Shown piece after piece: positions 3,288 to 62,978 of a stretch of 64,000 nt of DNA. The DNA comes from Escherichia phage HY03. The stretch lies in the sequence record NC_031047.1. One strand, written 5' to 3'. A program made the position numbers and the translations under genes. The notes under the pieces were generated by a model. That model worked only from the letters and a program-made list of their open reading frames with translations, was not told the origin of the DNA and did no database searches. The number at the start of each line of letters is the position of its first letter. Within the stretch, counting starts at the first letter, position 1.

Positions 3288-3310
3288 AGTCTCCTTCGGG
3301 AGACTTTTTT
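3288..3310 (+). terminator. rho-independent terminator
   Basis: AGTCTCC-TTCG-GGAGACT hairpin followed by T6. Confidence 0.8.
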
Positions 3311-3320
3311 CATTTTACCG

Positions 3321-3350
3321 GTTTACTTTCCGTTTGAGCTGTGGTACTAT
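3321..3350 (+). promoter_or_regulatory. T4 early promoter
   Basis: GTTTAC, 18-nt spacer, TACTAT; conserved TGGTACTATACAACTATC segment. Confidence 0.75.
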
Positions 3351-3378: not shown

Positions 3379-3567
3379 ATGAAAATTGAAGCACTTAATC
3401 AAGAAGGAAATATCTACGTCATCATTAATGGTGATTTTTTCGTCGACATGGATGAAGTTACCAGTGAAGAACTTGTAGAACTTCTTAAGAAACGTTATAA
3501 TATGTGTGATGAAGTTGCAACTCACATGGCGTGTGCAATATTCTCTCTTTCATATGTGGTGGAATAA
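3379..3567 (+). CDS. hypothetical protein
   Basis: 62 aa; AGAGGAG RBS before ATG. Confidence 0.5.
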
Positions 3568-4967: not shown

Positions 4968-4969
4968 TA

Positions 4970-4993
4970 GGGAGCCTTCGGGCTCCCTTTTTT
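4970..4993 (+). terminator. rho-independent terminator
   Basis: GGGAGCC-TTCG-GGCTCCC hairpin plus T6. Confidence 0.8.
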
Positions 4994-5018: not shown

Positions 5019-5048
5019 GTTTACAAGCATAAAGCTTTATGGTACTAT
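5019..5048 (+). promoter_or_regulatory. T4 early promoter with A/T-rich UP region
   Basis: AAAATTTTTTCACAAAG upstream; GTTTAC, 18-nt spacer, TACTAT. Confidence 0.75.
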
Positions 5049-5084
5049 ACAACTATCAAAACAAACACTTAAACGGAAAACAAA

Positions 5085-5234
5085 ATGAAAATTACACCAA
5101 TTGAAGTAAAAAAGTTGATTGACACAGAAGAAATTTCAGAGTGTTTTGAAAGTTTCTTAGAAGATGCAACTGAAGATAATGCAGTTTATCTCGCTCAGAA
5201 AATTATCGAAACTTATTTGGAGAAGAATCAATGA
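5085..5234 (+). CDS. hypothetical small protein
   Basis: 49 aa, below the ORF-track cutoff; ATGA overlap with next gene. Confidence 0.4.
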   Translation: MKITPIEVKKLIDTEEISECFESFLEDATEDNAVYLAQKIIETYLEKNQ

Positions 5235-5494
5235 CAGTTTACGTAGATGTTTTAATGAATCATGGATGGAAACTTCGCGGTCATCCAACTAAAAATTGTC
5301 ATATGTTCACTGATGGAGATATTGAAGAGCTTCACGAAATGGCAGAAGCAATAGGAATGAAACGTTCTTGGTTTCAAGATAAACGCATTAAACATTATGA
5401 CTTACACGCTCGGCGACGCCAAAAAGCTGTAGAACTTGGAGCTGTAGAAGTATCTCGTCGCGAAGCAGTAAAAATTTGGCAAACATTAAAATAA
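5231..5494 (+). CDS. hypothetical protein, DUF4031-like
   Basis: 87 aa; MTVYVD...HMF...LH..A..IG pattern recalled for DUF4031. Confidence 0.5.
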   Translation: MTVYVDVLMNHGWKLRGHPTKNCHMFTDGDIEELHEMAEAIGMKRSWFQDKRIKHYDLHARRRQKAVELGAVEVSRREAVKIWQTLK

Positions 5495-5563
5495 ATTGTT
5501 TACAGCAGGGTAGTAGTGTGATACTATTACCCTATCAAAACAAATGTAAAATTGGAGAATAAA

Positions 5564-6634: not shown

Positions 6635-6937
6635 ATGTTATACTCAAAGGCTCGTGAAATTTACGAAACTAAGATTAAAGAAGCTGTATTTCAGTTCGCA
6701 ACAACAATGCGATGGACAAATGATTGGGAATATTCAAAAAATCATAAGAAGCCCATGGTGACAAGAAAGGCTCATATGTTAGTGTTAATAGACCGTGAGC
6801 AGATTAAAGCCCGAGAAGCCCTCCAGAATCATAAAAAGGCTGCCTTTGAATGGTTTATGGATAACACTGCTCCTGAGACTAAGAAAGTAGTGAGCGCATG
6901 GTTCAGTGGAAAAAATTGTGAAAGAAGTTTCTTTTAG
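6635..6937 (+). CDS. hypothetical protein
   Basis: track ORF 6623..6937; GGAGG RBS then tandem ATGs; start uncertain. Confidence 0.5.
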   Translation: MLYSKAREIYETKIKEAVFQFATTMRWTNDWEYSKNHKKPMVTRKAHMLVLIDREQIKAREALQNHKKAAFEWFMDNTAPETKKVVSAWFSGKNCERSFF

Positions 6938-6939
6938 TT

Positions 6940-6969
6940 GTTTACAAGACTGTTCCTCTGTGGTACTAT
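6940..6969 (+). promoter_or_regulatory. T4 early promoter
   Basis: GTTTAC, 18 nt, TACTAT; near-identical copy at 62807. Confidence 0.75.
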
Positions 6970-6997
6970 ACAACTATCAACTACGGAGGAACACAAA

Positions 6998-7525
6998 ATG
7001 AACGCTAAAGATATTTTCAACCTGGTAAATTACAACGATGGTAAATTTAAATCTGAAGCACAAAGCAAGTTCTTTAATGACATCTCAATCGGAGGTGAAA
7101 TCACGGTTGATGGAGGACAAATTTACAAATCCCGTTGGAATTGGATCGTTATTATCGATGAGATTGGTATTGTAGAAATTTACAAGAATACGAATAAAAA
7201 TCGTACATTACACTGGTCTCGTGATACTAACGAACAGTACAAAAAGGATAAAGCATCTAAATTATCTCGTGTAACTCAAGAAGATATTGAGTTCATCAAG
7301 AAAGATATTTTAATGTATGATAACTTAATTGCTGAAGAGCAAGCTGTTATTGATAAATTTGACGAGATTAAAGCTTCTCGTGAAATTCCTGATTTTATGA
7401 AAGAATCAGTAAATGAACGATACACTCTCATTTCAGAGCGTATTGAAACTTACAAAAAGCAAAGAGCTGAACGCCAAAATACTCTTCGGAAGTTTGAAGA
7501 ACGGTTAAAGACGGTACTCGCATAA
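6998..7525 (+). CDS. hypothetical protein
   Basis: 175 aa; GGAGGA RBS. Confidence 0.6.
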   Translation: MNAKDIFNLVNYNDGKFKSEAQSKFFNDISIGGEITVDGGQIYKSRWNWIVIIDEIGIVEIYKNTNKNRTLHWSRDTNEQYKKDKASKLSRVTQEDIEFIKKDILMYDNLIAEEQAVIDKFDEIKASREIPDFMKESVNERYTLISERIETYKKQRAERQNTLRKFEERLKTVLA

Positions 7526-9188: not shown

Positions 9189-9915
9189 TCCAAATCATTA
9201 TCGTCTTGAATGGAGATTTATTGCTTTATTCCGTAAACAATTAAAGCAAATTTTGTCTACTGCTAGTCGATTAAAAGGCTCTGATATTAACTTAAAGAAT
9301 CTGAAATTTGATGGTTATACTCTTCAGATGGAAGTAAGACCGTTAAAAGAAAATAATAGAACTGCACGAATTAGCTTTAAACCTAATACAAAAAATTCTC
9401 TTTCAATTTGCGAATGCCTTAAATCGCAGTTGACAGAAGCATTTAAGTATATGGATGTTGTTGCTGCTGTTCAATCTAAGATTTTACCTCGTTTTGAGCG
9501 AAATTGGGAACATACAACAACATATGAACTTGATATGATCGTTTCATTTAAATATGAATTTTTGAGAAAGGATGAAATTGTTCAAGAGAAAAAGCAGGAA
9601 GTGCAAGATACCTTAAATTCATCTAATTACTCATCAAACGATCCTAAATTTTGGATGTATAGCTCAAGCAATATAGATGCATGTAAACTTAATAAAGTGA
9701 GTTTTCTTCCTACTGAAAATTCAAATTTTAAACCTGTTGAAAAATGGCACGCGGATGCGATTGAGAAGTCTATCAAGGCAGTAGATGATGAACTCGTTAA
9801 AGCAACTAATGAAGTGTTAGAAGCTGAAAAGATGCTAGAAAAAGCTCAAGAAAAAGTCAAAAATCTCACGAAGCAACGTTCTAAACTGAACAATGCACTA
9901 AATGCACTAAACTAG
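9085..9915 (+). CDS. hypothetical protein, start unresolved (possible frameshift fusion with 8892..9188)
   Basis: track ORF in +1 frame overlaps upstream gene by about 100 nt; no good RBS at in-frame ATG 9328 or TTG 9253. Confidence 0.35.
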   Translation: MNSSPISVKLLIIKILYLFEALVKVRLIYQLDFFNPNHYRLEWRFIALFRKQLKQILSTASRLKGSDINLKNLKFDGYTLQMEVRPLKENNRTARISFKPNTKNSLSICECLKSQLTEAFKYMDVVAAVQSKILPRFERNWEHTTTYELDMIVSFKYEFLRKDEIVQEKKQEVQDTLNSSNYSSNDPKFWMYSSSNIDACKLNKVSFLPTENSNFKPVEKWHADAIEKSIKAVDDELVKATNEVLEAEKMLEKAQEKVKNLTKQRSKLNNALNALN

Positions 9916-9944
9916 TTTACTTCGCCACAAGGATGTGGTATAAT
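9915..9944 (+). promoter_or_regulatory. T4 early promoter
   Basis: GTTTAC, 18 nt, TATAAT. Confidence 0.7.
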
Positions 9945-18734: not shown

Positions 18735-18935
18735 ATGAATCCTGAATCTAAATTATCGCAGCGAATTGCTGAAGAACGCGCCAAATTTTTCCAGAACATG
18801 AAACACAATGGTATTGAGGATGAAGTTTTTCTAAATTGGTTCTGGAATAATAAGTATGCAGCATGTGAAGGAGCTTTGTCATTGTCAGTCGCAATGATGT
18901 ACGAAGGCTGGAAGGGTGCCAAAAAGTTTAGCTAA
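18735..18935 (+). CDS. hypothetical protein
   Basis: 66-aa ORF. Confidence 0.5.
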   Translation: MNPESKLSQRIAEERAKFFQNMKHNGIEDEVFLNWFWNNKYAACEGALSLSVAMMYEGWKGAKKFS

Positions 18936-18952
18936 GGGCTTCGGCCCTTTTT
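18934..18952 (+). terminator. UUCG-tetraloop hairpin terminator
   Basis: AAGGGC-TTCG-GCCCTT followed by TTTT. Confidence 0.7.
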
Positions 18953-21372: not shown

Positions 21373-22575
21373 ATGAAAGTATGCATTTTTCTGGCTCGGG
21401 GTCTTGAAGGTTGTGGTGTAACTAAATTTTCTCTTGAGCAGCGTGATTGGTTTATTAAAAATGGTCATGAAGTAACTTTGGTTTATGCTAAAGATAAATC
21501 ATTTACTCGTACAAGTTCTCATGACCACAAATCATTTTCAATTCCAGTTATTTTAGCTAAAGAATACGATAAAGCACTTAAACTGATTAATGATTGTGAT
21601 ATTCTAATTATTAATTCTGTTCCTGCTACTTCCGTTCAAGAAGCCACGATTAATAACTATAAAAAACTTTTAGATAATATTAAACCTTCTATTCGTGTTG
21701 TAGTTTATCAGCATGATCATTCTGTTCTTTCTTTGCGTCGAAATTTGGGATTAGAAGAAACTGTTCGTCGAGCTGATGTTATTTTTAGTCATTCTGATAA
21801 TGGCGATTTTAATAAAGTTCTGATGAAAGAATGGTATCCAGAAACTGTTTCTCTGTTTGATGATATTGAAGAAGCACCAACAGTATATAATTTTCAGCCT
21901 CCTATGGATATTGCGAAGGTTCGGTCAACTTATTGGAAAGATGTTTCTGAAATTAACATGAACATCAACCGTTGGATTGGTCGTACGACTACATGGAAAG
22001 GTTTTTATCAGATGTTTGATTTTCACGAAAAATTCTTAAAACCTGCTGGTAAATCCACTGTAATGGAAGGTCTTGAACGTTCCCCTGCTTTTATTGCAAT
22101 TAAGGAAAAAGGTATTCCGTATGAATATTATGGTAATCGTGAGATTGATAAAATGAATCTCACGCCGAATCAACCGGCACAAATCCTAGATTGTTATATT
22201 AATAGTGAAATGCTTGAACGAATGAGTAAATCTGGCTTTGGATATCAGTTGAGTAAACTTAACCAGAAATACTTACAACGCTCACTCGAATATACTCATC
22301 TTGAATTAGGTGCTTGCGGTACAATTCCTGTTTTCTGGAAATCAACAGGTGATAATTTAAAATTCCGTGTTGATAATACTCCTTTGACCTCACATGATAG
22401 CGGTATCATTTGGTTTGATGAAAATGACATGGAATCAACATTCGAGCGTATTAAAGAACTGTCATCTGACCGAGCTCTTTATGACCGTGAGCGAGAAAAA
22501 GCATATGAATTTTTGTATCAGCATCAAGATTCAAGCTTCTGCTTTAAAGAACAGTTTGACATTATTACAAAATAA
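21373..22575 (+). CDS. agt: DNA alpha-glucosyltransferase
   Basis: 400 aa; matches recalled T4 alpha-gt. Confidence 0.9.
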   Translation: MKVCIFLARGLEGCGVTKFSLEQRDWFIKNGHEVTLVYAKDKSFTRTSSHDHKSFSIPVILAKEYDKALKLINDCDILIINSVPATSVQEATINNYKKLLDNIKPSIRVVVYQHDHSVLSLRRNLGLEETVRRADVIFSHSDNGDFNKVLMKEWYPETVSLFDDIEEAPTVYNFQPPMDIAKVRSTYWKDVSEINMNINRWIGRTTTWKGFYQMFDFHEKFLKPAGKSTVMEGLERSPAFIAIKEKGIPYEYYGNREIDKMNLTPNQPAQILDCYINSEMLERMSKSGFGYQLSKLNQKYLQRSLEYTHLELGACGTIPVFWKSTGDNLKFRVDNTPLTSHDSGIIWFDENDMESTFERIKELSSDRALYDREREKAYEFLYQHQDSSFCFKEQFDIITK

Positions 22576-22591
22576 AGGGCTTCGGCCCTTT
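22574..22591 (+). terminator. UUCG-tetraloop hairpin
   Basis: AAAGGGC-TTCG-GCCCTTT overlapping the alpha-gt stop. Confidence 0.6.
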
Positions 22592-22616
22592 AGCTTTATA
22601 CAGAGTTTGATATAAT
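22592..22616 (+). promoter_or_regulatory. middle-type promoter (variant MotA box)
   Basis: AGCTTTA, 12 nt, TATAAT upstream of gene 47. Confidence 0.5.
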
Positions 22617-26595: not shown

Positions 26596-27282
26596 ATGAA
26601 ACTGTCTAAAGATACACTGAATATTTTGAAAAATTTCGCTACTATTAACTCCGGTATTATGCTTAAATCCGGTCAATTTATTATGACTCGCGCAGTTAAT
26701 GGTACAACTTATGCGGAAGCAAATATTTCTGACGTTATTGATTTTGATGTAGCAATTTACGATTTGAACGGTTTTCTCGGTATTCTGTCTTTAGTTAATG
26801 ATGATGCAGAAATTTCCCAGTCAGAAGATGGTAATATTAAAATTGCTGATGCTCGCTCAACAATTTTTTGGCCAGCAGCCGATCCGAGTACAGTAGTTGC
26901 TCCTAATAAACCAATTCCATTCCCGGTAGCATCTGTTGTTACTGAAATTAAAGCTGAAGACCTTCAACAACTGTTGCGTGTATCTCGTGGTCTGCAAATT
27001 GATACAATTGCTATCACGGTAAAAGAAGGTAAAATCGTAATTAACGGTTTTAATAAAGTAGAAGATTCTGCTCTGACCCGTGTTAAATATTCTTTGACTC
27101 TTGGTGATTATGATGGTGAAAATACATTTAATTTCATTATCAATATGGCAAATATGAAAATGCAACCAGGAAATTATAAACTTCTGCTCTGGGCAAAAGG
27201 TAAACAAGGTGCTGCTAAATTTGAAGGTGAACACGCGAATTATGTAGTAGCTCTTGAAGCTGATTCTACCCACGACTTTTAA
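26596..27282 (+). CDS. 45: sliding clamp gp45
   Basis: 228 aa; matches recalled T4 gp45. Confidence 0.9.
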   Translation: MKLSKDTLNILKNFATINSGIMLKSGQFIMTRAVNGTTYAEANISDVIDFDVAIYDLNGFLGILSLVNDDAEISQSEDGNIKIADARSTIFWPAADPSTVVAPNKPIPFPVASVVTEIKAEDLQQLLRVSRGLQIDTIAITVKEGKIVINGFNKVEDSALTRVKYSLTLGDYDGENTFNFIINMANMKMQPGNYKLLLWAKGKQGAAKFEGEHANYVVALEADSTHDF

Positions 27283-27284
27283 TA

Positions 27285-27300
27285 GAGGGCTTCGGCCCTT
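27285..27300 (+). terminator. UUCG-tetraloop hairpin
   Basis: AGGGC-TTCG-GCCCT followed by a TATAAT-like hexamer. Confidence 0.55.
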
Positions 27301-27333
27301 TATAATTTACACTAAAACTTGAATGAGGAAATT

Positions 27334-28293
27334 ATGATTACTGTAAATGAAAAAGAACACATTCTTGAACAGAAATATCGTCCATCTACTATCGATGAAT
27401 GTATTCTTCCCGCCTTTGATAAAGAAACCTTTAAATCTATTACAAGTAAAGGTAAGATTCCACATATTATTCTTCATTCTCCTTCTCCGGGAACAGGTAA
27501 AACAACTGTAGCAAAAGCATTGTGTCATGATGTAAATGCTGATATGATGTTTGTGAATGGATCAGATTGTAAAATTGATTTCGTTCGCGGTCCTTTGACC
27601 AATTTTGCTAGTGCAGCTTCATTTGATGGTCGTCAAAAAGTAATCGTTATTGATGAATTTGACCGTTCAGGGTTAGCAGAGTCTCAGCGACATCTTCGTT
27701 CCTTTATGGAAGCTTATAGTTCAAACTGTAGTATTATTATTACTGCTAACAATATTGATGGTATTATTAAACCACTTCAGTCACGCTGCCGAGTTATTAC
27801 ATTCGGTCAACCGACCGATGAAGATAAAATTGAAATGATGAAGCAGATGATTCGTCGATTGACTGAAATCTGCAAGCGTGAAGGAATTGCTATAGCTGAT
27901 ATGAAAGTTGTAGCAGCTTTGGTTAAAAAGAATTTTCCTGATTTTCGTAAAACTATTGGCGAGCTCGATAGTTATTCATCTAAAGGTGTTTTGGATGCTG
28001 GTATTTTATCACTGGTTACTAACGATCGTGGTGCTATTGATGATGTTCTTGAGTCTCTCAAAAATAAAGATGTTAAACAGCTCAGAGCTTTAGCACCAAA
28101 ATATGCAGCTGATTATTCGTGGTTCGTAGGTAAACTTGCCGAAGAAATCTATACACGCGTAACTCCGCAAAGTATTATTCGTATGTATGAAATTGTTGGT
28201 GAAAATAACCAGTATCATGGAATTGCGGCTAATACTGAATTACATTTAGCATATCTTTTCATTCAATTGGCATGTGAAATGCAGTGGAAGTGA
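27334..28293 (+). CDS. 44: clamp loader large subunit gp44
   Basis: 319 aa; Walker [11 protein letters not shown]; track start is an upstream TTG. Confidence 0.9.
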
Positions 28294-28859: not shown

Positions 28860-29228
28860 ATGATTGAAATTACTCTTAAAAAACCTGAAGATTTTCTGAA
28901 AGTTAAAGAAACTCTGACTCGTATGGGAATTGCTAATAATAAAGATAAAGTTCTGTATCAATCCTGTCATATTCTCCAGAAAAAAGGACTATACTATATC
29001 GTTCATTTTAAAGAAATGCTTCGTATGGATGGTCGCCAGGTTGAAATGACAGAAGAAGATGAAGTTCGTCGTGATTCGATTGCATGGCTGTTAGAAGATT
29101 GGGGACTGATTGAAATCGCTCCCGGTCAAAGAACTTTTATGAAAGATTTAACTAATAACTTCCGAGTTATTTCTTTTAAACAAAAACACGAATGGAAACT
29201 CGTTCCTAAATATACGATTGGTAATTAA
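28860..29228 (+). CDS. regA: translational repressor RegA
   Basis: 122 aa; matches recalled T4 RegA. Confidence 0.9.
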   Translation: MIEITLKKPEDFLKVKETLTRMGIANNKDKVLYQSCHILQKKGLYYIVHFKEMLRMDGRQVEMTEEDEVRRDSIAWLLEDWGLIEIAPGQRTFMKDLTNNFRVISFKQKHEWKLVPKYTIGN

Positions 29229-29230
29229 GC

Positions 29231-29248
29231 AAGGGGCTTCGGCCCCTT
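29231..29248 (+). terminator. UUCG-tetraloop hairpin
   Basis: AAGGGGC-TTCG-GCCCCTT. Confidence 0.55.
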
Positions 29249-29270
29249 AATTGGAGTATAATATATCAAG

Positions 29271-38345: not shown

Positions 38346-39773
38346 GTGGTAGAAATTATTCTTTCCCATCTCATATTTGATCAAGCTTATTTTTCAAAAG
38401 TTTGGCCATATATGGATTCAGAATATTTTGAAAGTGGTCCAGCTAAAAATACATTCAAATTAATTAAATCTCATGTTAATGAGTACCATAGCGTTCCATC
38501 TATTAATGCGTTAAATGTTGCATTAGAAAATAGTTCATTTACTGAAACAGAATATTCTGGTGTAAAAACACTTATTTCAAAACTGGCTGATTCTCCGGAA
38601 GACCACAGCTGGTTAGTAAAAGAAACAGAAAAATATGTTCAGCAAAGGGCGATGTTTAATGCTACGTCTAAAATAATCGAAATTCAAACTAATGCTGAGC
38701 TTCCTCCGGAAAAACGAAATAAGAAAATGCCGGATGTTGGTGCTATTCCTGACATCATGCGCCAAGCATTATCAATTTCATTTGATAGCTACGTTGGTCA
38801 TGATTGGATGGATGACTACGAAGCACGTTGGCTATCTTATATGAATAAAGCTCGTAAGGTTCCATTTAAACTCAGAATTCTAAACAAAATTACTAAAGGC
38901 GGAGCTGAGACTGGAACACTGAACGTTTTAATGGCTGGCGTTAACGTTGGTAAGTCATTAGGATTGTGTTCATTGGCAGCAGATTATTTGCAGCTCGGAC
39001 ATAATGTTCTTTACATTTCCATGGAAATGGCAGAAGAAGTCTGTGCTAAACGTATTGACGCTAATATGCTTGATGTTTCTCTTGATGACATTGATGATGG
39101 GCATATTTCTTACGCTGAATATAAAGGAAAAATGGAAAAATGGCGTGAGAAATCTACTCTCGGTCGTTTAATCGTTAAACAGTATCCTACTGGTGGAGCA
39201 GACGCTAATACATTTCGATCACTTTTAAACGAATTGAAGCTCAAGAAGAATTTTGTTCCAACAATCATTATTGTCGACTATCTAGGTATTTGTAAATCTT
39301 GCCGCATTAGAGTTTATTCAGAAAATAGTTACACAACTGTTAAAGCTATTGCAGAGGAATTGCGTGCTCTGGCTGTTGAAACCGAAACTGTTCTTTGGAC
39401 TGCAGCACAGGTTGGTAAACAAGCTTGGGATTCTTCTGATGTTAACATGAGCGATATTGCAGAATCTGCCGGTCTTCCAGCAACAGCTGATTTTATGCTT
39501 GCGGTCATTGAAACCGAGGAGCTAGCAGCTGCTGAACAACAACTCATTAAGCAAATCAAATCACGATACGGTGATAAGAATAAATGGAATAAGTTTTTGA
39601 TGGGTGTTCAAAAAGGAAATCAGAAATGGGTAGAAATTGAACAAGATTCTACTCCAACTGAAGTGAACGAAGTAGCAGGTTCACAGCAAATTCAGGCTGA
39701 ACAGAATCGCTATCAAAGAAACGAATCCGCTCGAGCTCAGTTAGATGCTTTGGCAAATGAATTAAAATTTTAG
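38346..39773 (+). CDS. 41: replicative DNA helicase gp41 (DnaB-like)
   Basis: 475 aa; Walker A GVNVGKS; GTG start; matches T4 gp41. Confidence 0.95.
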   Translation: MVEIILSHLIFDQAYFSKVWPYMDSEYFESGPAKNTFKLIKSHVNEYHSVPSINALNVALENSSFTETEYSGVKTLISKLADSPEDHSWLVKETEKYVQQRAMFNATSKIIEIQTNAELPPEKRNKKMPDVGAIPDIMRQALSISFDSYVGHDWMDDYEARWLSYMNKARKVPFKLRILNKITKGGAETGTLNVLMAGVNVGKSLGLCSLAADYLQLGHNVLYISMEMAEEVCAKRIDANMLDVSLDDIDDGHISYAEYKGKMEKWREKSTLGRLIVKQYPTGGADANTFRSLLNELKLKKNFVPTIIIVDYLGICKSCRIRVYSENSYTTVKAIAEELRALAVETETVLWTAAQVGKQAWDSSDVNMSDIAESAGLPATADFMLAVIETEELAAAEQQLIKQIKSRYGDKNKWNKFLMGVQKGNQKWVEIEQDSTPTEVNEVAGSQQIQAEQNRYQRNESARAQLDALANELKF

Positions 39774-39802
39774 TTTACAAGCTGACAAGACTATGGTATA
39801 GT
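39773..39802 (+). promoter_or_regulatory. T4 early promoter with inverted repeat around the -10
   Basis: GTTTAC overlapping gene 41 stop, 18 nt, TATAGT; flanked by ACAAGACTA / TAGTCTTGT. Confidence 0.7.
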
Positions 39803-39831
39803 AGTCTTGTTGGTTAAATGAGGAGATTGTT

Positions 39832-40014
39832 ATGGAATTGGTAAAGGTAGTTTTTATGGGGTTGTTTAAGAACGAAAGCATGTTTACTAAAGAGATCACA
39901 ATGATGAAAGATGACGTTCAATGGGCTACTACTCAATATGCTGAAGTTAATAAAGCATTAGTTAAAGCTTTCATTGATGACAAGAAAGTATGTGAAGTGG
40001 ATTGCCGAGGATAA
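39832..40014 (+). CDS. dmd: Dmd (discriminator of mRNA degradation; antitoxin against RnlA/LsoA)
   Basis: 60 aa; matches recalled T4 Dmd. Confidence 0.85.
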   Translation: MELVKVVFMGLFKNESMFTKEITMMKDDVQWATTQYAEVNKALVKAFIDDKKVCEVDCRG

Positions 40015-42426: not shown

Positions 42427-42456
42427 GTTTACTTTCTCAGCTTGTTATGATATTAT
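42427..42456 (+). promoter_or_regulatory. T4 early promoter
   Basis: GTTTAC, 18 nt, TATTAT. Confidence 0.65.
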
Positions 42457-42478
42457 AAAATAAATTGCTGAGGATGAT

Positions 42479-43821
<1,343 letters not shown>

Positions 43822-45065: not shown

Positions 45066-45073
45066 TAATTCAA

Positions 45074-45097
45074 GGACTCCTTCGGGAGTCCTTTTTT
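45074..45097 (+). terminator. rho-independent terminator
   Basis: GGACTCC-TTCG-GGAGTCC hairpin plus T6. Confidence 0.8.
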
Positions 45098-45107
45098 CAT
45101 TTTACCG

Positions 45108-45138
45108 GTTTACTTTCCAAAATGAGTATGGTATAATA
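45108..45138 (+). promoter_or_regulatory. T4 early promoter
   Basis: GTTTAC then TGGTATAAT; same terminator-promoter module as at 3288..3350. Confidence 0.7.
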
Positions 45139-45163: not shown

Positions 45164-45370
45164 ATGTTAAATCGCTGGATTAAACCGAATGAAGATTTAG
45201 ATATTATCATTTCACGACATGTAATGAAAAAATATGAACTGCAGCCATGGTCTACAGAAGTTGTTGTGCATTCATTTATGATGTACGCAGATGGTTCTGT
45301 CGAATTTAATGCAGAGATTCGATATGATTATGGTGAGAAGCAAGTTGAATTCAAGAGAGGCTTTTTGTAA
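45164..45370 (+). CDS. hypothetical protein
   Basis: 68-aa ORF. Confidence 0.5.
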   Translation: MLNRWIKPNEDLDIIISRHVMKKYELQPWSTEVVVHSFMMYADGSVEFNAEIRYDYGEKQVEFKRGFL

Positions 45371-47209: not shown

Positions 47210-47239
47210 GTTTACTTTCCTTTCTAACGATGATATGAT
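47210..47239 (+). promoter_or_regulatory. T4 early promoter
   Basis: GTTTAC, 18 nt, TATGAT. Confidence 0.65.
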
Positions 47240-47265
47240 AGCTTCTGAAGTATACGGAGGCTATC

Positions 47266-47889
47266 ATGATTATTAATCTTGCAGATGTTGAACAGTTATC
47301 TATAAAAGCTGAAAGCGTTGATTTTCAATATGATATGTATAAAAAAGTCTGTGAAAAATTTACTGACTTTGAGCAGTCAATTCTTTGGCAGTGTATGGAA
47401 GCCAAAAAGAATGAAGCTCTTCATCGGCAATTGAATAAAATCATTAAAAAGCATTTAACTAAATCACCATATCAGTTATATCGTGGTATATCAAAATCAA
47501 CAGAAGAACTTATTAAAGATTTACAAGTTGGAGAAGTGTTTTCAACGAACAGGGTAGATTCATTTACTACTAGTTTGCACACAGCATGTGGTTTTTCTTA
47601 TGTTGAGTATTTCACTGAAATAATATTTCGCTTAAAAACTGATAAAGCTTTTAATTATTCTGACCATATCAGCGACATTATACTTTCTTCTCCTAATACT
47701 GAGTTTAAGTATACATATGAAGATACTGATGGATTAGATTCAGAACGTACTGATAACTTAATGATGATTGTGCGTGAACAAGAATGGATGATTCCAATTG
47801 GAAAGTATAGAATAACTTCTATTTCAAAAGAAAAATTACACGATTCATTTGGAACATTTAAAGTGTATGATATTGAGGTAGTTGAATGA
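47266..47889 (+). CDS. modB: ADP-ribosyltransferase, Mod family
   Basis: 207 aa; R-S-E motif YRGIS, STN, EQEWMIP; modB versus modA assigned from length and order only. Confidence 0.6.
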   Translation: MIINLADVEQLSIKAESVDFQYDMYKKVCEKFTDFEQSILWQCMEAKKNEALHRQLNKIIKKHLTKSPYQLYRGISKSTEELIKDLQVGEVFSTNRVDSFTTSLHTACGFSYVEYFTEIIFRLKTDKAFNYSDHISDIILSSPNTEFKYTYEDTDGLDSERTDNLMMIVREQEWMIPIGKYRITSISKEKLHDSFGTFKVYDIEVVE

Positions 47890-52171: not shown

Positions 52172-52201
52172 GTTTACTTCCTCGGTTAGTTGTGGTATTA
52201 T
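52172..52201 (+). promoter_or_regulatory. T4 early promoter
   Basis: GTTTAC, 18 nt, TATTAT. Confidence 0.7.
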
Positions 52202-52228
52202 AACACCATAGCTACTGAGGATAATAAA

Positions 52229-52729
52229 ATGAAAATTTATCGTGTTGAATCATCGTTTAGTATTCTTAATAATGAAGATGCTATAACAATACGTCGAAAT
52301 CTTTGTGTTCAAATAACGCCGTACAGGAGTATAATAGATTCATGGAGCGAAGAGTGGCTATTACACGTAGGTTATGACAGACCTAATTTTATGCATCATA
52401 GCGATAATAATAAAAGAATTCCTTTACCACACGAAGACAAATTATTAGTTAAAAACGCTAATATAGCAATTAATACTAAGTTCAAGAAAGATTATGTTGG
52501 AGTAGAATATCATATTCCAGGATGGTTTATAGCTCTTTATCATTTTGCTTTCGCTAGTGAATATGATATGATGAGATGGTTCACACGAGAAGAGCGTGAA
52601 GAATTATCTTCTAAAGGATTTTATCTTGCTGTATACGAAGTGCCAGATGACCAAGTTATCATTGGCGGACATCAAGTAATGTTCCGTAAATCCCATGCTG
52701 AACTTATAGATTTTATTGAAATGAGATAA
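52229..52729 (+). CDS. hypothetical protein (motB.2 position)
   Basis: 166 aa from in-frame ATG of track ORF 52190..52729. Confidence 0.55.
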   Translation: MKIYRVESSFSILNNEDAITIRRNLCVQITPYRSIIDSWSEEWLLHVGYDRPNFMHHSDNNKRIPLPHEDKLLVKNANIAINTKFKKDYVGVEYHIPGWFIALYHFAFASEYDMMRWFTREEREELSSKGFYLAVYEVPDDQVIIGGHQVMFRKSHAELIDFIEMR

Positions 52730-53899: not shown

Positions 53900-54016
53900 A
53901 TCAATATCAACTACTGATACAGAAAACAACTTGGAGAATAAAATGGAAATTCGCCAAAGGTGCTGATACTCTTCTGAAACGCATCGCTCCAATGTTTAAT
54001 TAATGAGGAAATTGTA

Positions 54017-54826: not shown

Positions 54827-55084
54827 ATGAAATATGTTAATCGTTCTATCGCAGCATTAGTATTAGCAGTGTCTTTAGTAGGATGTACTGATGCTGATAA
54901 TGCAACCAAAGTTTTGTCTTCAAGCGGTTTTACTAATATTGAAATCACTGGATATAATTGGTTCGGTTGCTCTGAAAATGATTTCCAGCATACTGGATTT
55001 CGTGCTATTGGGACCTACTGGGCAGAAAGTAGAAGGAACAGTATGTTCTGGACTATTCTTCAAGGATTCGACTATCCGTTTTAA
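54827..55084 (+). CDS. putative lipoprotein (39.1 position)
   Basis: 85 aa; lipobox LVGC. Confidence 0.55.
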   Translation: MKYVNRSIAALVLAVSLVGCTDADNATKVLSSSGFTNIEITGYNWFGCSENDFQHTGFRAIGTYWAESRRNSMFWTILQGFDYPF

Positions 55085-55087
55085 ATA

Positions 55088-55105
55088 AAAGGCCTTCGGG
55101 CCTTT
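55088..55105 (+). terminator. UUCG-tetraloop hairpin
   Basis: AAAGGCC-TTCG-GGCCTTT. Confidence 0.55.
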
Positions 55106-55130
55106 AGCTTTATGATTACCGGAGTATAAT
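55106..55130 (+). promoter_or_regulatory. middle-type promoter (variant MotA box)
   Basis: AGCTTTA, 12 nt, TATAAT upstream of gene 39. Confidence 0.5.
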
Positions 55131-57672: not shown

Positions 57673-58017
57673 TTAGGTTCTATTTATCCTTCTCTGCTCG
57701 GATTTTTTAGTAATTGGCCAGAATTGTTTGAGCAAGGACGAATTCGTTTTGTCAAAACTCCTGTAATCATCGCTCAGGTCGGTAAAAAACAAGAATGGTT
57801 TTATACAGTCGCTGAATATGAGAGTGCCAAAGATGCTCTACCTAAACATAGCATCCGTTATATTAAAGGACTTGGTTCTTTGGAAAAATCTGAATATCGT
57901 GAGATGATTCAAAACCCAGTATATGATGTTGTTAAACTTCCTGAGAATTGGAAAGAGCTTTTTGAAATGCTCATGGGAGATAATGCTGACCTTCGTAAAG
58001 AATGGATGAGCCAGTAG
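57673..58017 (+). CDS. 60: topoisomerase II subunit gp60, codons 47-160 (after bypass)
   Basis: LGSIYPSLLGFFSNWPELFEQGRIRFVK... matches T4 gp60. Confidence 0.85.
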   Translation, partial: LGSIYPSLLGFFSNWPELFEQGRIRFVKTPVIIAQVGKKQEWFYTVAEYESAKDALPKHSIRYIKGLGSLEKSEYREMIQNPVYDVVKLPENWKELFEMLMGDNADLRKEWMSQ

Positions 58018-58046
58018 TTTACTTTACCACAAGGATGTGGTATAAT
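58017..58046 (+). promoter_or_regulatory. T4 early promoter
   Basis: GTTTAC overlapping gene 60 stop, 18 nt, TATAAT. Confidence 0.7.
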
Positions 58047-58071: not shown

Positions 58072-58275
58072 ATGAAATCATATAGAGTAAATTTAGAACT
58101 TTTTGATAAAGCAGTTCATCGAGAATATAGAATCATTCAACGCTTTTTCGATATGGGAGAAGCCGAAGAATTTAAAAACCGCTTTAAGGATATTAGAGAT
58201 AAAATTCAATCCGACACCGCAACTAAAGATGAACTACTAGAAGTTGCTGAAGTTATTAAACGCAATATGAATTAA
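58072..58275 (+). CDS. hypothetical protein (rIIA.1 position)
   Basis: 67-aa ORF. Confidence 0.55.
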
Positions 58276-58285
58276 TGAGGAAATT

Positions 58286-60463
58286 ATGATTATCACCACT
58301 GAAAAAGAAACAATTCTTGGTAATGGTTCTAAATCAAAAGCATTTAGCATCACAGCATCTCCTAAAGTATTTAAAATTCTGTCATCTGATTTGTATACAA
58401 ACAAAATTCGCGCAGTAGTCCGTGAATTAATTACTAACATGATTGATGCTCATGCACTTAATGGAAATCCTGAAAAATTTATTATACAAGTTCCTGGACG
58501 TTTAGACCCACGATTTGTTTGTCGAGATTTTGGTCCGGGTATGAGTGATTTTGATATTCAAGGTGATGATAATTCTCCTGGTCTGTATAATTCATACTTC
58601 AGTTCATCTAAGGCTGAATCTAACGATTTCATTGGCGGATTTGGTTTAGGTTCTAAATCTCCATTTAGTTATACTGATACATTTAGTATTACTTCGTATC
58701 ATAAAGGTGAAATTCGTGGTTATGTAGCTTACATGGATGGTGATGGTCCACAGATTAAACCTACATTCGTAAAAGAAATGGGTCCAGATGATAAAACTGG
58801 TATTGAAATCGTAGTTCCAGTTGAAGAAAAAGACTTTAGAAACTTTGCTTATGAAGTTTCTTATATCATGCGACCGTTCAAAGATTTGGCTATCATTAAT
58901 GGTCTTGACCGCGAAATTGATTATTTTCCGGATTTTGATGACTATTACGGTGTAAATCCAGAAAGATACTGGCCAGATCGTGGTGGATTGTATGCTATCT
59001 ATGGTGGTATTGTTTATCCTATTGATGGTGTTATTAGAGACCGTAACTGGCTAAGCATTCGCAATGAAGTGAATTACATTAAGTTTCCAATGGGTTCACT
59101 TGATATTGCTCCATCACGTGAAGCTCTTTCATTGGATGATCGTACTCGTAAAAATATTATTGAACGAGTTAAAGAGCTTAGTGAGAAAGCATTTAATGAA
59201 GATGTAAAACGATTTAAAGAATCTACATCTCCTCGTCACACATACCGTGAATTGATGAAGATGGGGTATTCTGCTCGAGATTATATGATTAGTAATTCAG
59301 TCAAATTCACGACTAAAAATCTGTCATATAAAAAGATGCAGAGCATGTTTGAACCTGACAGTAAGTTATGCAATGCAGGGGTTGTGTATGAAGTAAATCT
59401 TGACCCTCGACTGAAACGCATTAAGCAAAGTCATGAAACTTCAGCCGTCGCATCAAGTTATCGTCTGTTTGGTATTAATACAACAAAAATTAATATCGTT
59501 ATTGATGATATTAAAAATCGTGTTAATATTGTTCGTGGATTAGCACATGCGTTAGATGATAGTGAATTTAATAACACTTTAAATATTCATCACAATGAGC
59601 GTCTTCTGTTTATTAATCCAGAAGTAGAATCGCAGATTGATTTACTCCCTGATATTATGGCGATGTTTGAAAGTGATGAAGTTAACATTCATTATTTGTC
59701 AGAAATCGAAGCTTTAGTTAAAAGCTATATTCCAAAGGTAGTTAAAAGTAAAGCTCCTCGTCCTAAAGCTGCTACAGCATTTAAGTTTGAAATTAAAGAC
59801 GGGCGCTGGGAAAAAGAGGAATTATTTACGCTCACATCAGAAGCAGATGAAATTACTGGTTATGTAGCGTATATGCATCGTTCTGATATTTTCTCTATGG
59901 ATGGTACTACATCTCTTTGTCATCCATCTATGAATATTTTGATTCGTATGGCTAATCTTATTGGCATTAATGAATTTTATGTTATTCGTCCGCTTTTACA
60001 GAAAAAGGTAAAAGAACTCGGTCAGTGCCAATGTATTTTTGAAACTTTGCGTGATTTATATGTAGATGCTTTTGATGATGTAGATTATGATAAGTACGTA
60101 GGTTATTCAAGTTCAGCTCAACGATATATTGATAAAATTATCAAGTATCCTGAGTTAGATTTTATGATGAAGTACTTCAGTACAGATGAAGTTTCTGAAG
60201 AATATACACGACTCGCTAATATAGTTAGTTCATTGCGCGGTGTATATTTTAATGGTGGAAAAGATACCATTGGTCATGACATCTGGACAGTAACTAATCT
60301 TTTTGATGTATTATCAAATAATGCTTCAAAAAACAGTGATAAAATGGTTGCTGAGTTTACCAAGAAATTCCGCATTGTTTCCGACTTCATCGGTTATCGC
60401 AACTCTTTAAGTGATGATGAAGTTTCTCAAATCGCTAAAACTATGAAGGCCCTTGCGGCCTAA
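58286..60463 (+). CDS. rIIA: rIIA membrane-associated protein
   Basis: 725 aa; GHKL-like N-terminal ATPase motifs; matches T4 rIIA. Confidence 0.9.
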
Positions 60464-60474
60464 TAAGGAAAATT

Positions 60475-61413
60475 ATGTACAATATTAAATGCCTGACCAA
60501 AAACGAACAAGCTGAAATTGTTAAACTGTATTCAAGCGGTAATTATACCCAACAGGAATTGGCTGATTGGCAAGGTGTATCGGTTGACACAATCCGTCGT
60601 GTTTTGAAAAATGCTGAAGAAGCTAAACACCCTAAAGTTACTATTAGCGGTGACATTACAGTTGAAGTTAAGAGTGATGTAGCTATTGCTCCAGTTGCTA
60701 AATCTGACATTATTTGGAATGCATCTAAAAAATTCATTTCAATTACTGTTGACGGTGTAACTTATAACGCAACTCCTAATACTCATTCAAACTTCCAGGA
60801 AATTCTTAATCTGCTTGTAGCGGATAAGCTGGAAGAAGCAGCACAAAAAATTAATGTTCGTCGCGCCGTTGAAAAATATATTTCCGGCGATGTTCGAATT
60901 GAAGGTGGAAGCTTGTTCTATCAAAATATCGAATTGCGGTCTGGTTTGGTTGATCGTATTCTTGACTCGATGGAAAAAGGCGAAAACTTTGAATTTTATT
61001 TTCCGTTCTTGGAAAATCTGCTGGAAAACCCAAGCCAAAAAGCGGTATCTCGACTCTTTGATTTCTTGGTAGCAAACGATATTGAAATTACAGAAGATGG
61101 TTACTTCTATGCTTGGAAAGTAGTTCGCAGCAATTACTTTGACTGTCACTCAAACACCTTTGATAACAGTCCTGGTAAAGTAGTTAAAATGCCACGTACT
61201 CGTGTGAATGACGATGATACACAAACTTGTTCTCGTGGTCTGCATGTGTGTTCTAAATCTTATATTCGTCACTTTGGCAGTTCAACCAGTCGAGTTGTAA
61301 AAGTTAAAGTACATCCGCGTGATGTAGTATCAATTCCGATTGATTACAACGATGCTAAAATGCGTACCTGCCAATACGAAGTAGTTGAAGACGTTACTGA
61401 ACAATTTAGATAA
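60475..61413 (+). CDS. rIIB: rIIB protein
   Basis: 312 aa; initiation region GGAAAATTATGTACAAT as in T4 rIIB. Confidence 0.9.
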   Translation: MYNIKCLTKNEQAEIVKLYSSGNYTQQELADWQGVSVDTIRRVLKNAEEAKHPKVTISGDITVEVKSDVAIAPVAKSDIIWNASKKFISITVDGVTYNATPNTHSNFQEILNLLVADKLEEAAQKINVRRAVEKYISGDVRIEGGSLFYQNIELRSGLVDRILDSMEKGENFEFYFPFLENLLENPSQKAVSRLFDFLVANDIEITEDGYFYAWKVVRSNYFDCHSNTFDNSPGKVVKMPRTRVNDDDTQTCSRGLHVCSKSYIRHFGSSTSRVVKVKVHPRDVVSIPIDYNDAKMRTCQYEVVEDVTEQFR

Positions 61414-61429
61414 GGGCTTCGGCCCTTAT
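61410..61429 (+). other. UUCG-tetraloop stem-loop
   Basis: ATAAGGGC-TTCG-GCCCTTAT overlapping rIIB stop; no U-run. Confidence 0.5.
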
Positions 61430-61445
61430 CACATTAAGGAAAATT

Positions 61446-61640
61446 ATGTTAGGTTATCAAGCACGAGTAAAAGAAGAATACGACCAATTAATGCTCAAAA
61501 TTAATGCACTGAGCAAATTTTTAGAAAGTACAAAGTTTCTAACGATTAATGAAGTTGAGCAAGAACTGTTGTTTTCGCAGTTTATCTCAATGAAATCTTA
61601 TGCAGAGTGTTTAGAGAAAAGAATCGCACAATTCAAATAA
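61446..61640 (+). CDS. hypothetical protein
   Basis: 64-aa ORF. Confidence 0.5.
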   Translation: MLGYQARVKEEYDQLMLKINALSKFLESTKFLTINEVEQELLFSQFISMKSYAECLEKRIAQFK

Positions 61641-61643
61641 AGT

Positions 61644-61667
61644 AAAGGGCTTCGGCCCTTTTGTTTT
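61644..61667 (+). terminator. rho-independent terminator
   Basis: AAAGGGC-TTCG-GCCCTTT followed by TGTTTT. Confidence 0.75.
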
Positions 61668-61726
61668 AAGAGAAACTATGATTTATTATATGAATATCAG
61701 TGATTCCGACGTAAAAGGAAAGTTTA

Positions 61727-62300: not shown

Positions 62301-62330
62301 GTTTACATACCACAAGGACTGTGGTACTAT
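62301..62330 (+). promoter_or_regulatory. T4 early promoter with UP region
   Basis: GTTTAC, 18 nt, TACTAT. Confidence 0.75.
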
Positions 62331-62357
62331 ACAACTATCAGCTACGGAGGAGTAAAA

Positions 62358-62621
62358 ATGAAATTTAAATTCTTTTATGTTAAACATAAAATCACAGGTG
62401 AATTTGTTTATGTACAATATTCTGAAATTGACGATGCAACATCATTTATTTCATTGGGATTGTCTAAATATGAATCAGACCAACCATATCTTACTGATAA
62501 ATTGCAACAAGAGCGTTTGTTGAATGGTGATTTAAACAATTCTTGGGAAGTTCTTATTTACGATGATTTAAAGAAAGCTATTAAAGAAAATAATCTTGAA
62601 ATCATTGAGATTGAACTATGA
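62358..62621 (+). CDS. hypothetical protein
   Basis: 87 aa; GGAGGAG RBS. Confidence 0.5.
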   Translation: MKFKFFYVKHKITGEFVYVQYSEIDDATSFISLGLSKYESDQPYLTDKLQQERLLNGDLNNSWEVLIYDDLKKAIKENNLEIIEIEL

Positions 62622-62806
62622 GTTCATTATGGTGGTGTTTTGTTTGGTTAATTAGTATTCCAATAATTTGTTTAACATTTACTTTTGTGATGAGGTTATT
62701 ATGAAAATTTTGAATTCTGTACTTATTGCGTGTGCGTGGTGGGTTGCGCAAGTTTCGGCGGTAGTAGTTGGTATTCACATTTATTACGAATATTTTTAAA
62801 AAAGTT

Positions 62807-62836
62807 GTTTACAAGACTGTTCCTCTGTGGTATTAT
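62807..62836 (+). promoter_or_regulatory. T4 early promoter
   Basis: GTTTAC, 18 nt, TATTAT; duplicate of the 6940 module. Confidence 0.7.
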
Positions 62837-62864
62837 TATCCTATCAACTACGGAGGAACAGAAA

Positions 62865-62978
62865 ATGAAAAAGATTATTAAAGCTATATGGAATGTAGTT
62901 ATAATACTAGTAGTTTTGAGTATATTCCCAATCGTTTTAATGATTGATGTATTAAACGCTTACTTTGGATTTATGTGA
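62865..62978 (+). CDS. hypothetical small membrane protein
   Basis: 37-aa hydrophobic ORF after GGAGGA RBS. Confidence 0.35.
   Translation: MKKIIKAIWNVVIILVVLSIFPIVLMIDVLNAYFGFM

Follow-up and report, generated by a model that had tools for sequence, protein, structure and literature searches.

Early promoters of Escherichia phage HY03 enclosed in hairpins predicted to mask the ribosome binding site on read-through RNA

Introduction

We analyzed a 64,000-nucleotide (nt) stretch of the genome of Escherichia phage HY03 (NC_031047.1; hereafter the window), in which one near-identical element, here called module 1, precedes the homologues of the T4 genes nrdC.8 and ndd.4. Each copy is an early promoter enclosed in a hairpin whose 5' arm lies within the promoter and whose 3' arm contains the Shine-Dalgarno (SD) sequence of the gene. 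From fold energies and comparisons among related phages we consider it rather probable that these hairpins mask the ribosome binding site (RBS) and that both genes are translated only from RNA that begins at their own promoters. RNA from the own promoter would start in the hairpin loop, lack the 5' arm, and present an open leader that could be translated directly after infection. RNA arriving from promoters further upstream would contain both arms, fold and bury the RBS, such that the gene would be silent in vivo on the longer transcripts. Burial on read-through RNA would probably protect the GGAG from the RegB nuclease as well.

Results

Module 1 is a repeat longer than the early promoter consensus

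The window belongs to a T4-like (Tequatrovirus) genome and is read along the early-gene strand: its plus strand corresponds to the minus strand of T4, the carrier of the early genes. About 500 Tequatrovirus genomes match the ~2 kb around each module at 95-99% identity. Genes were assigned by local BLAST against T4 segments. The nrdC.8 homologue (6998..7525, plus strand, ATG at 6998) encodes 175 amino acids (aa) and is 98% identical to T4 53885-53706, while the ndd.4 homologue (62865..62978, plus strand, ATG at 62865; T4 counterpart at 166749) encodes a 37-aa hydrophobic peptide. The two coding sequences are unrelated to each other. Pfam returned nothing for either product, and Rfam returned no family at gathering score anywhere in the 64-kb window.

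An earlier note on this DNA had placed direct repeats at 6930-6997 and 62797-62864. The repeats exist, and nothing similar is expected by chance even when three mismatches are allowed, but the span as claimed begins ~6 nt too early. A 30-mer (AGTTGTTTACAAGACTGTTCCTCTGTGGTA) is found exactly at 6936-6965 and 62803-62832, and a 20-mer (CTATCAACTACGGAGGAACA) at 6974-6993 and 62841-62860. Overall identity was 91%, both over 67 nt in a repeat-family search and over 58 aligned nt in a promoter comparison, and it ends at upstream stop codons on one side and at ATGAA on the other. The note had proposed exact alignment as a check on whether the shared segments exceed the promoter consensus. This was done by comparing the 16 early promoters in the window pairwise, giving 120 pairs with a median identity of 50% overall and 30% at non-consensus columns (95th percentiles of 67% and 50%, respectively). 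At its 30 non-consensus columns the module 1 pair is 93% identical. The repeat is longer than the promoter consensus, and its two copies are far more alike than members of the T4 early promoter family usually are.

Promoter anatomy and upstream transcription

Promoters were located with the regular expression GTTTAC-N15-TGnTAnnnT together with sigma-70 scans. The expression matched 19 sites on the plus strand and none on the minus strand, and 16 of the 19 lie 50-65 nt upstream of a start codon with an SD. The nrdC.8 early promoter (6940..6969, plus strand) consists of a -35 GTTTAC at 6940-6945, a 15-nt spacer, a TGn at 6961-6963 and a -10 TACTAT at 6964-6969, with a predicted +1 at ~6976; its T4 orthologue is at 53943. 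The ndd.4 early promoter (62807..62836, plus strand; regular expression and sigma-70 scan) has its -35 at 62807-62812, its -10 TATTAT at 62831-62836 and a predicted +1 at ~62843, and the orthologous T4 promoter is at 166807. Both show the elements of a T4 early promoter (Pe), namely a -35 GTTTAC/TTTACA, 17-bp spacing, TGn and a TAnnAT -10. A/T-rich UP-like tracts (AAAAAATTGTGAAAGAAGTTTCTTTTAG and ATATTTTTAAAAAAG) lie directly 5' of the -35 elements. For the motA early promoter of T4 both hexamers were annotated by the depositors, and its -10 region is that of module 1, with TGTGGTACTATACAACTATCAACTAC in common. The consensus of T4 early promoters reaches beyond the sigma-70 elements (PMC2988021). 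Module 1 resembles these 'über' UP/-35/TGn/-10 promoters even at the conserved positions downstream of the -10 and in its early-gene orientation (PMC2988021); as promoters, the two copies show no difference from them.

Additional plus-strand early promoters are situated upstream of both copies. For the nrdC.8 module these are at 5019-5048 and 5498-5527, with transcripts that cross nrdC.10 and nrdC.9. For the ndd.4 module the upstream promoter is at 62301-62330, 506 bp before it, and is the direct-repeat partner flanking a variable cassette of three open reading frames (ORFs). Since a plus-strand terminator scan found no terminator between these promoters and either copy of module 1, read-through RNA is expected at both modules.

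The hairpin joins promoter spacer to Shine-Dalgarno sequence

The earlier note had also described an inverted repeat, TGTTCCTC/GAGGAACA, that could pair in the leader and mask the RBS. The inverted repeat is present and becomes longer in RNA, at 14-15 bp. At nrdC.8 two of its 14 bp are G·U (UGUUCCUCUGUGGU / ACUACGGAGGAACA), and the ndd.4 copy has 15 bp, with stabilities of -20 to -23 kcal/mol, G·U pairs included. The nrdC.8 5' arm (6951..6964, plus strand; TGTTCCTCTGTGGT) is made up of spacer, TGn and the first base of the -10. The loop holds the remaining -10 bases and the predicted +1, and the 3' arm (6980..6993, plus strand; ACTACGGAGGAACA) contains the SD GGAGG at 6985-6989. At ndd.4, the 15-nt 5' arm occupies 62817..62831 (plus strand; -23.2 kcal/mol, z = -5.9), and the 3' arm 62847..62861 (plus strand), containing the SD GGAGG at 62852-62856.

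Folding the RNA of the whole module gave -23.2 kcal/mol (z = -4.3 and -4.5, with 0 of 200 shuffles as stable), with GGAGG inside the stem. The own-promoter leaders, folded from the predicted +1, were unstructured at 0 kcal/mol. We quantified accessibility as the cost of opening the initiation region. In the window this opening energy was 20.3 kcal/mol on read-through RNA versus 0.9 kcal/mol on the own transcript for nrdC.8, and 19.6 versus 1.0 kcal/mol for ndd.4. When only the 15 spacer bases were shuffled, the two native copies stood out at z = -5.6 and -6.4. Masking by leader pairing is therefore right in one part, as GGAGG can be buried, and wrong in another, as the module's own leader lacks the 5' arm. 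That arm precedes the predicted +1, which restricts masking of the RBS to read-through transcripts.

The non-Watson-Crick pairs of module 1 are G·U, which gives its sense strand a folding advantage of 7-8 kcal/mol over the antisense strand and favors structure in RNA over structure in DNA. Upstream stop codons are located 14 and 18 nt before the 5' arms, and, going by the known ribosome footprint, a ribosome terminating there would not be expected to melt the stem. The hairpins have no T-run and were not called by the terminator scan at either copy. Lacking a T-run, the stem of module 1 is unlikely to be an intrinsic terminator, and this reading was set aside.

Pairing is kept within Tequatrovirus and, with different arms, in Dhakavirus

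Within the genus we compared 13 distinct Tequatrovirus sequences, covering both loci. Stem cells were paired in 98.4% of cases. Five stem columns vary, each by a C/T transition, and in four of them wobble preserves the pair, while the loop varies by transversions. Dhakavirus orthologues of nrdC.8 have another SD context (CTACTGGAGGT) and a 5' arm that is both different and shifted (ATCTCCAGTAG; ATCTCCGGTAG in IME08), yet pairing between the two is retained (z = -6.9 and -5.4, with an opening energy of 17-17.5 versus 2.7 kcal/mol). At motB.2, a further early gene treated below, the arms are UUCCUCGGU-UAGUUGUGGU / ACCAUAGCUACUGAGGA in Tequatrovirus and UUCUCCUCAUG / CAUGAGGAGAA in Dhakavirus-like phages. 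Judged at the level of sequence, such replacement of both arms between genera is stronger support than the changes within the genus; no single alignment can score it, as it is out of register. Sampling of nrdC.8 orthologues added 8 loci from IMG/VR and 12 from a metagenome scan, none of which lay outside the same three or four genera. For ndd.4, whose peptide is too short for a query, denB served as the anchor.

The alignments also bear on the annotation of ndd.4. The annotated T4 start (NC_000866, 166764; orthologous to window position 62850) is an ATG created by a C-to-T change in the 3' arm (ACTATGGAGG). Fifteen nt downstream, the ATG at T4 166749 is normally spaced from a GGAGGA SD and corresponds in the alignment to the start of other phages. 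By this comparison the T4 annotation of ndd.4 probably begins too early.

Calibration against T4 gene starts

To place these values on a scale we calculated opening energies, over positions -14 to +3, for 96 annotated T4 gene starts with 75 nt of upstream context. The T4 sequences themselves gave the same fold picture as the window. In T4, nrdC.8 and ndd.4 shared first rank at 17.0 kcal/mol, with modB at 16.7, gene 49 at 15.9, motB.2 at 15.2 and I-TevII at 13.0 kcal/mol; soc reached 8.4 kcal/mol. Gene 49 and soc are established cases of such control, and an inhibitory structure has been reported for I-TevII (PMC3014915). Own-promoter transcripts in T4 cost 0.9-1.3 kcal/mol to open for nrdC.8 and ndd.4, and 0.9-2.8 kcal/mol across the four early genes. 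Four of the five top-ranked T4 starts adjoin an early promoter, against a base rate of 14 of 96 (hypergeometric p = 0.0014).

The two additional early genes in this top group have counterparts in the window. The motB.2 promoter hairpin (52179..52221, plus strand; -35 at 52172) encloses the -10 and buries the SD GAGGA ahead of the ATG at 52229, with a spacer-shuffle z of -3.6 and a read-through fold of -23.7 kcal/mol versus 0 for the own transcript. In the modB promoter hairpin (47229..47274, plus strand; -35 at 47210), the -10 and discriminator pair with the SD GGAGG and the AUG (47266) at -22.3 kcal/mol. The arm sequences at motB.2 and modB are unrelated to those of module 1, and on this sequence evidence we read them as independent recurrences of the same design. 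Spacer shuffling was also significant for the promoter of an ORF at 42479 (p = 0.016) and for the mrh.2 promoter (p = 0.045). The more general proposal, that all early promoters have an anti-SD spacer, was rejected: nothing of the kind is present in at least 10 of the 16 in the window, and the rank test gave p = 0.054.

Several other early promoters in the window have structure of their own. In the region 42427-43042, a 187-aa ORF follows an early promoter whose spacer can pair with the SD (UUCUCAGC/GCUGAGGA), at an opening energy of 11.5 versus 0.7 kcal/mol. This ORF was unmatched in the T4 segments examined, and its only Pfam hits, to DpnII-like and BanI-like restriction enzymes, were sub-threshold. 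At the dmd homologue promoter (39773-39832), read-through RNA folds at -20.2 kcal/mol, with a helix ACAAGACU/AGUCUUGU and flanking pairs that enclose the -10; the SD is weakly involved and the opening energy in T4 is 1.3 kcal/mol. The promoters at 9915-9944, 58017-58046 and 62301-62330 have a common spacer, CCACAAGGA[T/C]-GTGG, which forms an inverted repeat CCACA/TGTGG running into the TGn and -10, and the first two are 94% identical over 32 nt. These three promoters are a second sub-family, with an internal stem-loop that stops short of the SD.

Exchange between the two copies of module 1

The 55.9 kb between the two copies are collinear with T4 from ~166.8 kb through 0 to 53.9 kb, a stretch that we take to hold replication genes by the established T4 map. 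A crossover between the copies that deleted or duplicated it should therefore not be viable, and we rejected a viable 56-kb deletion or duplication in view of this collinearity, the essential genes of T4 and headful packaging. The earlier note had considered the repeats to be substrates for deletions and duplications; recombination of this kind is known for the promoter family (PMC2839356, PMC4122927), but this particular pair should not give a viable product. Viable deletions are plausible only between neighboring promoters, for example those at 62301 and 62807.

Smaller exchanges between the copies are indicated by the comparison of genomes. In six genomes that have both copies, the states typical of each locus are swapped in linked blocks. 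One genome has an nrdC.8 promoter with the ndd.4-type -10, loop and pre-AUG base, and another has an ndd.4 promoter with the nrdC.8-type arm and loop. The 5' arm at ndd.4 in the window is likewise of the nrdC.8 type. Gene conversion among dispersed repeats, in a phage as highly recombinogenic as this, would be expected to produce such a mosaic. Partial conversion would leave the hairpin intact, since an arm of one module can stand in for that of the other. The near-identity of the copies may thus reflect common origin and occasional conversion that the interchangeable arms make tolerable.

A similarity of another kind was found between the initiation regions and first codons at 27322-27367 and 58274-58319, which are 80% identical over 46 nt (AATGAGGAAATTATGATTA...). 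The latter is rIIA by collinearity, and the former is presumably gene 44. This likeness may reflect a shared RegA-type operator.

Module 2 and the PeSL cassettes

Textbook T4 biology already includes repeated promoters, cassettes of terminator and promoter, and the part these play in recombination, and terminator hairpins of the C(UUCG)G type are typical of T4. A second repeated module, earlier placed at 3288-3326 and 45074-45113, is confirmed with small offsets at 3288-3331 and 45072-45118. Its core is a 27-mer (TTTTTTCATTTTACCGGTTTACTTTCC) exact at 3305-3331 and 45092-45118, preceded by terminator-like CTCC-TTCG-GGAG hairpins at 3288-3305 and 45072-45093 whose outer stems differ between the copies by compensating changes. 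Copy 1 (3288..3350, plus strand) combines the UUCG terminator and its T-run with a -35 at 3321-3326 and a -10 at 3345-3350, followed by the mobD.5 homologue (ATG at 3379). Copy 2 (45072..45137, plus strand) likewise has terminator and T-run, a -35 at 45108-45113 and a -10 at 45132-45137, followed by the mrh.2 homologue (ATG at 45164). A family of GGGC-UUCG-GCCC hairpins of the C(UUCG)G terminator type, mostly with T-runs, is located at 18922-18949, 22569-22598, 27279-27308, 29226-29255, 55083-55112, 61400-61427 and 61639-61668.

Module 2 is a standard PeSL, with a classic UUCG terminator and an early promoter. PeSLs (promoter-early stem-loops) are intergenic cassettes of an A/T-rich region, a terminator or stem-loop, an early promoter, an SD and an ATG that have been implicated in gene shuffling; they recur across hyperplastic regions of T4-like phages, next to variable ORFs (PMC2839356, PMC4122927). 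They are sites of recombination, with crossovers mapped inside them (PMC2839356), and a published example is the ndd.4/.5 locus itself (PMC4122927, Fig. 6A). Both modules have early promoter, stem-loop, SD and ATG in one repeated intergenic cassette. Module 2 corresponds to the T4/PST form, with the terminator just 5' of the promoter, and module 1 to the RB49 form, with the stem-loop overlapping the -10. Module 1 differs from PeSLs in that its 3' arm is the Shine-Dalgarno region and lacks a T-run, for which reason its stem-loop looks like a translational mask and not a terminator. The word 'translation' is absent from the 2010 PeSL paper (PMC2839356).

Variable ORFs flanked by PeSLs are also found, in that a cassette differing from T4 lies between the promoters at 62301 and 62807. 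The cassette at 62331-62806 holds three small ORFs (87, 28 and ~32 aa), of which the 87-aa ORF, the sole one submitted to BLAST, has no T4 counterpart. At T4 167086-166807, ndd.6 and ndd.5 are found instead, and the promoters are 279 bp apart versus 506 bp in the window. This difference fits the PeSL-flanked cassette exchange described for the locus (PMC4122927, Fig. 6A). At 5019-5235, a terminator (4969-4988) and the early promoter at 5019 are followed by a 49-aa ORF (ATG at 5085) that was unmatched in the T4 segments examined; this region is probably a further variable PeSL-flanked cassette.

Discussion

Relation to known translational gates

Translational gating by sequestration of the RBS is known in T4, where e, soc, 49, I-TevI and related genes are listed as RBS-sequestered and one review calls them all late genes (PMC3014915, PMC2988022). 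As predicted for module 1, the long transcripts of T4 e, soc, 49, I-TevI/II/III and segB and of Aeh1 mobE bury the SD or AUG in a helix, and a promoter inside the hairpin gives a short, translated transcript without the 5' arm. The predicted stability of module 1 equals or exceeds that of these gates (PMC3014915, PMC2988022). By computation, module 1 likewise has its SD and AUG in a stable helix on long RNA, and its own transcript, from the predicted +1, is free of the 5' arm. The known gates, however, use late (TATAAATA) or middle promoters and their genes are translated late, whereas the internal promoter of module 1 is of the immediate-early sigma-70 type and its T4 orthologues are early. 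Given an immediate-early internal promoter, the predicted effect is mirrored, that is translation would be limited to an early pulse.

Published expression data and RegB cleavage can be set beside this prediction. In T4, nrdC.8, motB.2 and modB are early in both RNA and protein, and ndd.4 is early in RNA (PMC9697503 supplement). The module 1 leader has a GGAG followed by an A-rich tract, as RegB targets do, and the GGAG of T4 nrdC.8 is cut 'moderately' by RegB in vivo, an activity that RNA structure inhibits (PMC1702504). On read-through RNA the same GGAG would sit in a helix and would probably go uncut. A mixture of open short and closed long transcripts would be expected to show such moderate cleavage.

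Alternative explanations

A number of observations weigh against a translational gate. The +1 is a prediction based on where the -10 lies. Within Tequatrovirus no double-sided compensatory change was found, and covariation was no higher than in shuffles. The nrdC.8 hairpins of Mosigvirus and Gaprivervirus enclose the -10 and bury the SD weakly (6.3 and 1.4 kcal/mol). Among the T4 gene starts, the 'top five' cut-off was chosen after the data had been seen, and promoter-proximal starts did not differ significantly from the others overall (Mann-Whitney p = 0.054). The feature was found in just ~4-6 of the 14-16 early promoters examined. One of these observations, on Mosigvirus and Gaprivervirus, is shared by an explanation that we regard as unlikely but worth attention, in which the hairpin is a PeSL-type transcriptional or RNA-metabolic element, acting in attenuation, termination, processing, stability or as a RegB shield, and SD masking is a side effect. 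In the PeSLs of RB49 and phi1 the stem-loop is commonly placed between the two promoter hexamers or across the -10, and for one of these a reporter showed termination of transcription (PMC2839356); the Mosigvirus and Gaprivervirus hairpins fit this description, and RegB is blocked by RNA structure. Such an element would not by itself account for the specific use of the SD or AUG as 3' arm, seen at four loci and again in a second genus, nor for opening energies equal to those of proven translational gates, and the missing T-run and empty terminator scan at both modules speak against termination.

It is improbable that the complementarity has no RNA function at all and merely records a recent duplication or conversion of the cassette, with pyrimidine-rich spacers that happen to match purine-rich SDs. 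CTTTCC-like motifs do occur in several spacers, the mosaic states show exchange between the copies, and the structural support within the genus consists of one-sided changes. If chance matching were the cause, then shuffles that keep the composition of the spacer should pair equally well, but the native spacers fold far better than these, and the pairing reaches well past the SD core. Nor would it explain the unrelated arm pairs at motB.2, modB and the Dhakavirus orthologues, or the preference for the sense strand through G·U pairs. That last preference also makes it very improbable that the inverted repeat acts in DNA, whether by forming a cruciform, by binding a protein as a palindrome or by serving as a hot spot of recombination within the promoter. 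PeSLs do recombine, with crossovers mapped within them (PMC2839356), but a DNA hairpin would have mismatches at 2-3 of its 14 pairs, namely those that are G·U in the sense RNA and C·A on the opposite strand; the antisense fold is correspondingly less stable, and the substitutions keep RNA wobble pairs. Finally, the form in which masking was originally proposed, with the hairpin in the module's own mRNA leader throttling its own translation, seems to us hardly credible. The inverted repeat is real and covers GGAGG, but its 5' arm extends no further than the first base of the -10, a sigma-70 start 5-9 nt past the -10 excludes the arm, and the predicted own leader has a folding energy of 0 kcal/mol.

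A probable translational gate and its possible reach

Taken together, computation and comparison suggest that the idea of RBS masking was right in substance and would apply to read-through RNA, not to the own leader. An early-promoter version of the known translational gate is probably undescribed: we found neither a prior description of early-promoter hairpins nor a genome-wide map of T4 transcription start sites in the literature searched, which did not extend to older T4 subscription journals. Tentatively, and with less conviction than for module 1 itself, we extend the gate to a general 'origin-of-transcript' translational code in the early regions of T-even phages, by which nrdC.8, ndd.4, motB.2, modB and probably others would be translated only from their own early promoters. 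Synthesis of these proteins would be confined to a short pulse while their DNA remains in middle-mode polycistronic RNA, the read-through RNA would be shielded from RegB, and arm complementarity together with gene conversion would keep some promoter cassettes nearly identical.

RBS masking is known in T4 for late genes only, so its occurrence around early promoters may be new. Confirmation would account for some of the extra conservation in T4 early promoter regions that has so far lacked an explanation, and would offer a means by which potentially toxic early proteins such as ModB could be expressed in a pulse. T4 engineering would be affected as well, since deleting or moving an early promoter would alter the translatability of the gene downstream, a consideration that would be relevant whenever T4 early promoters are re-used.

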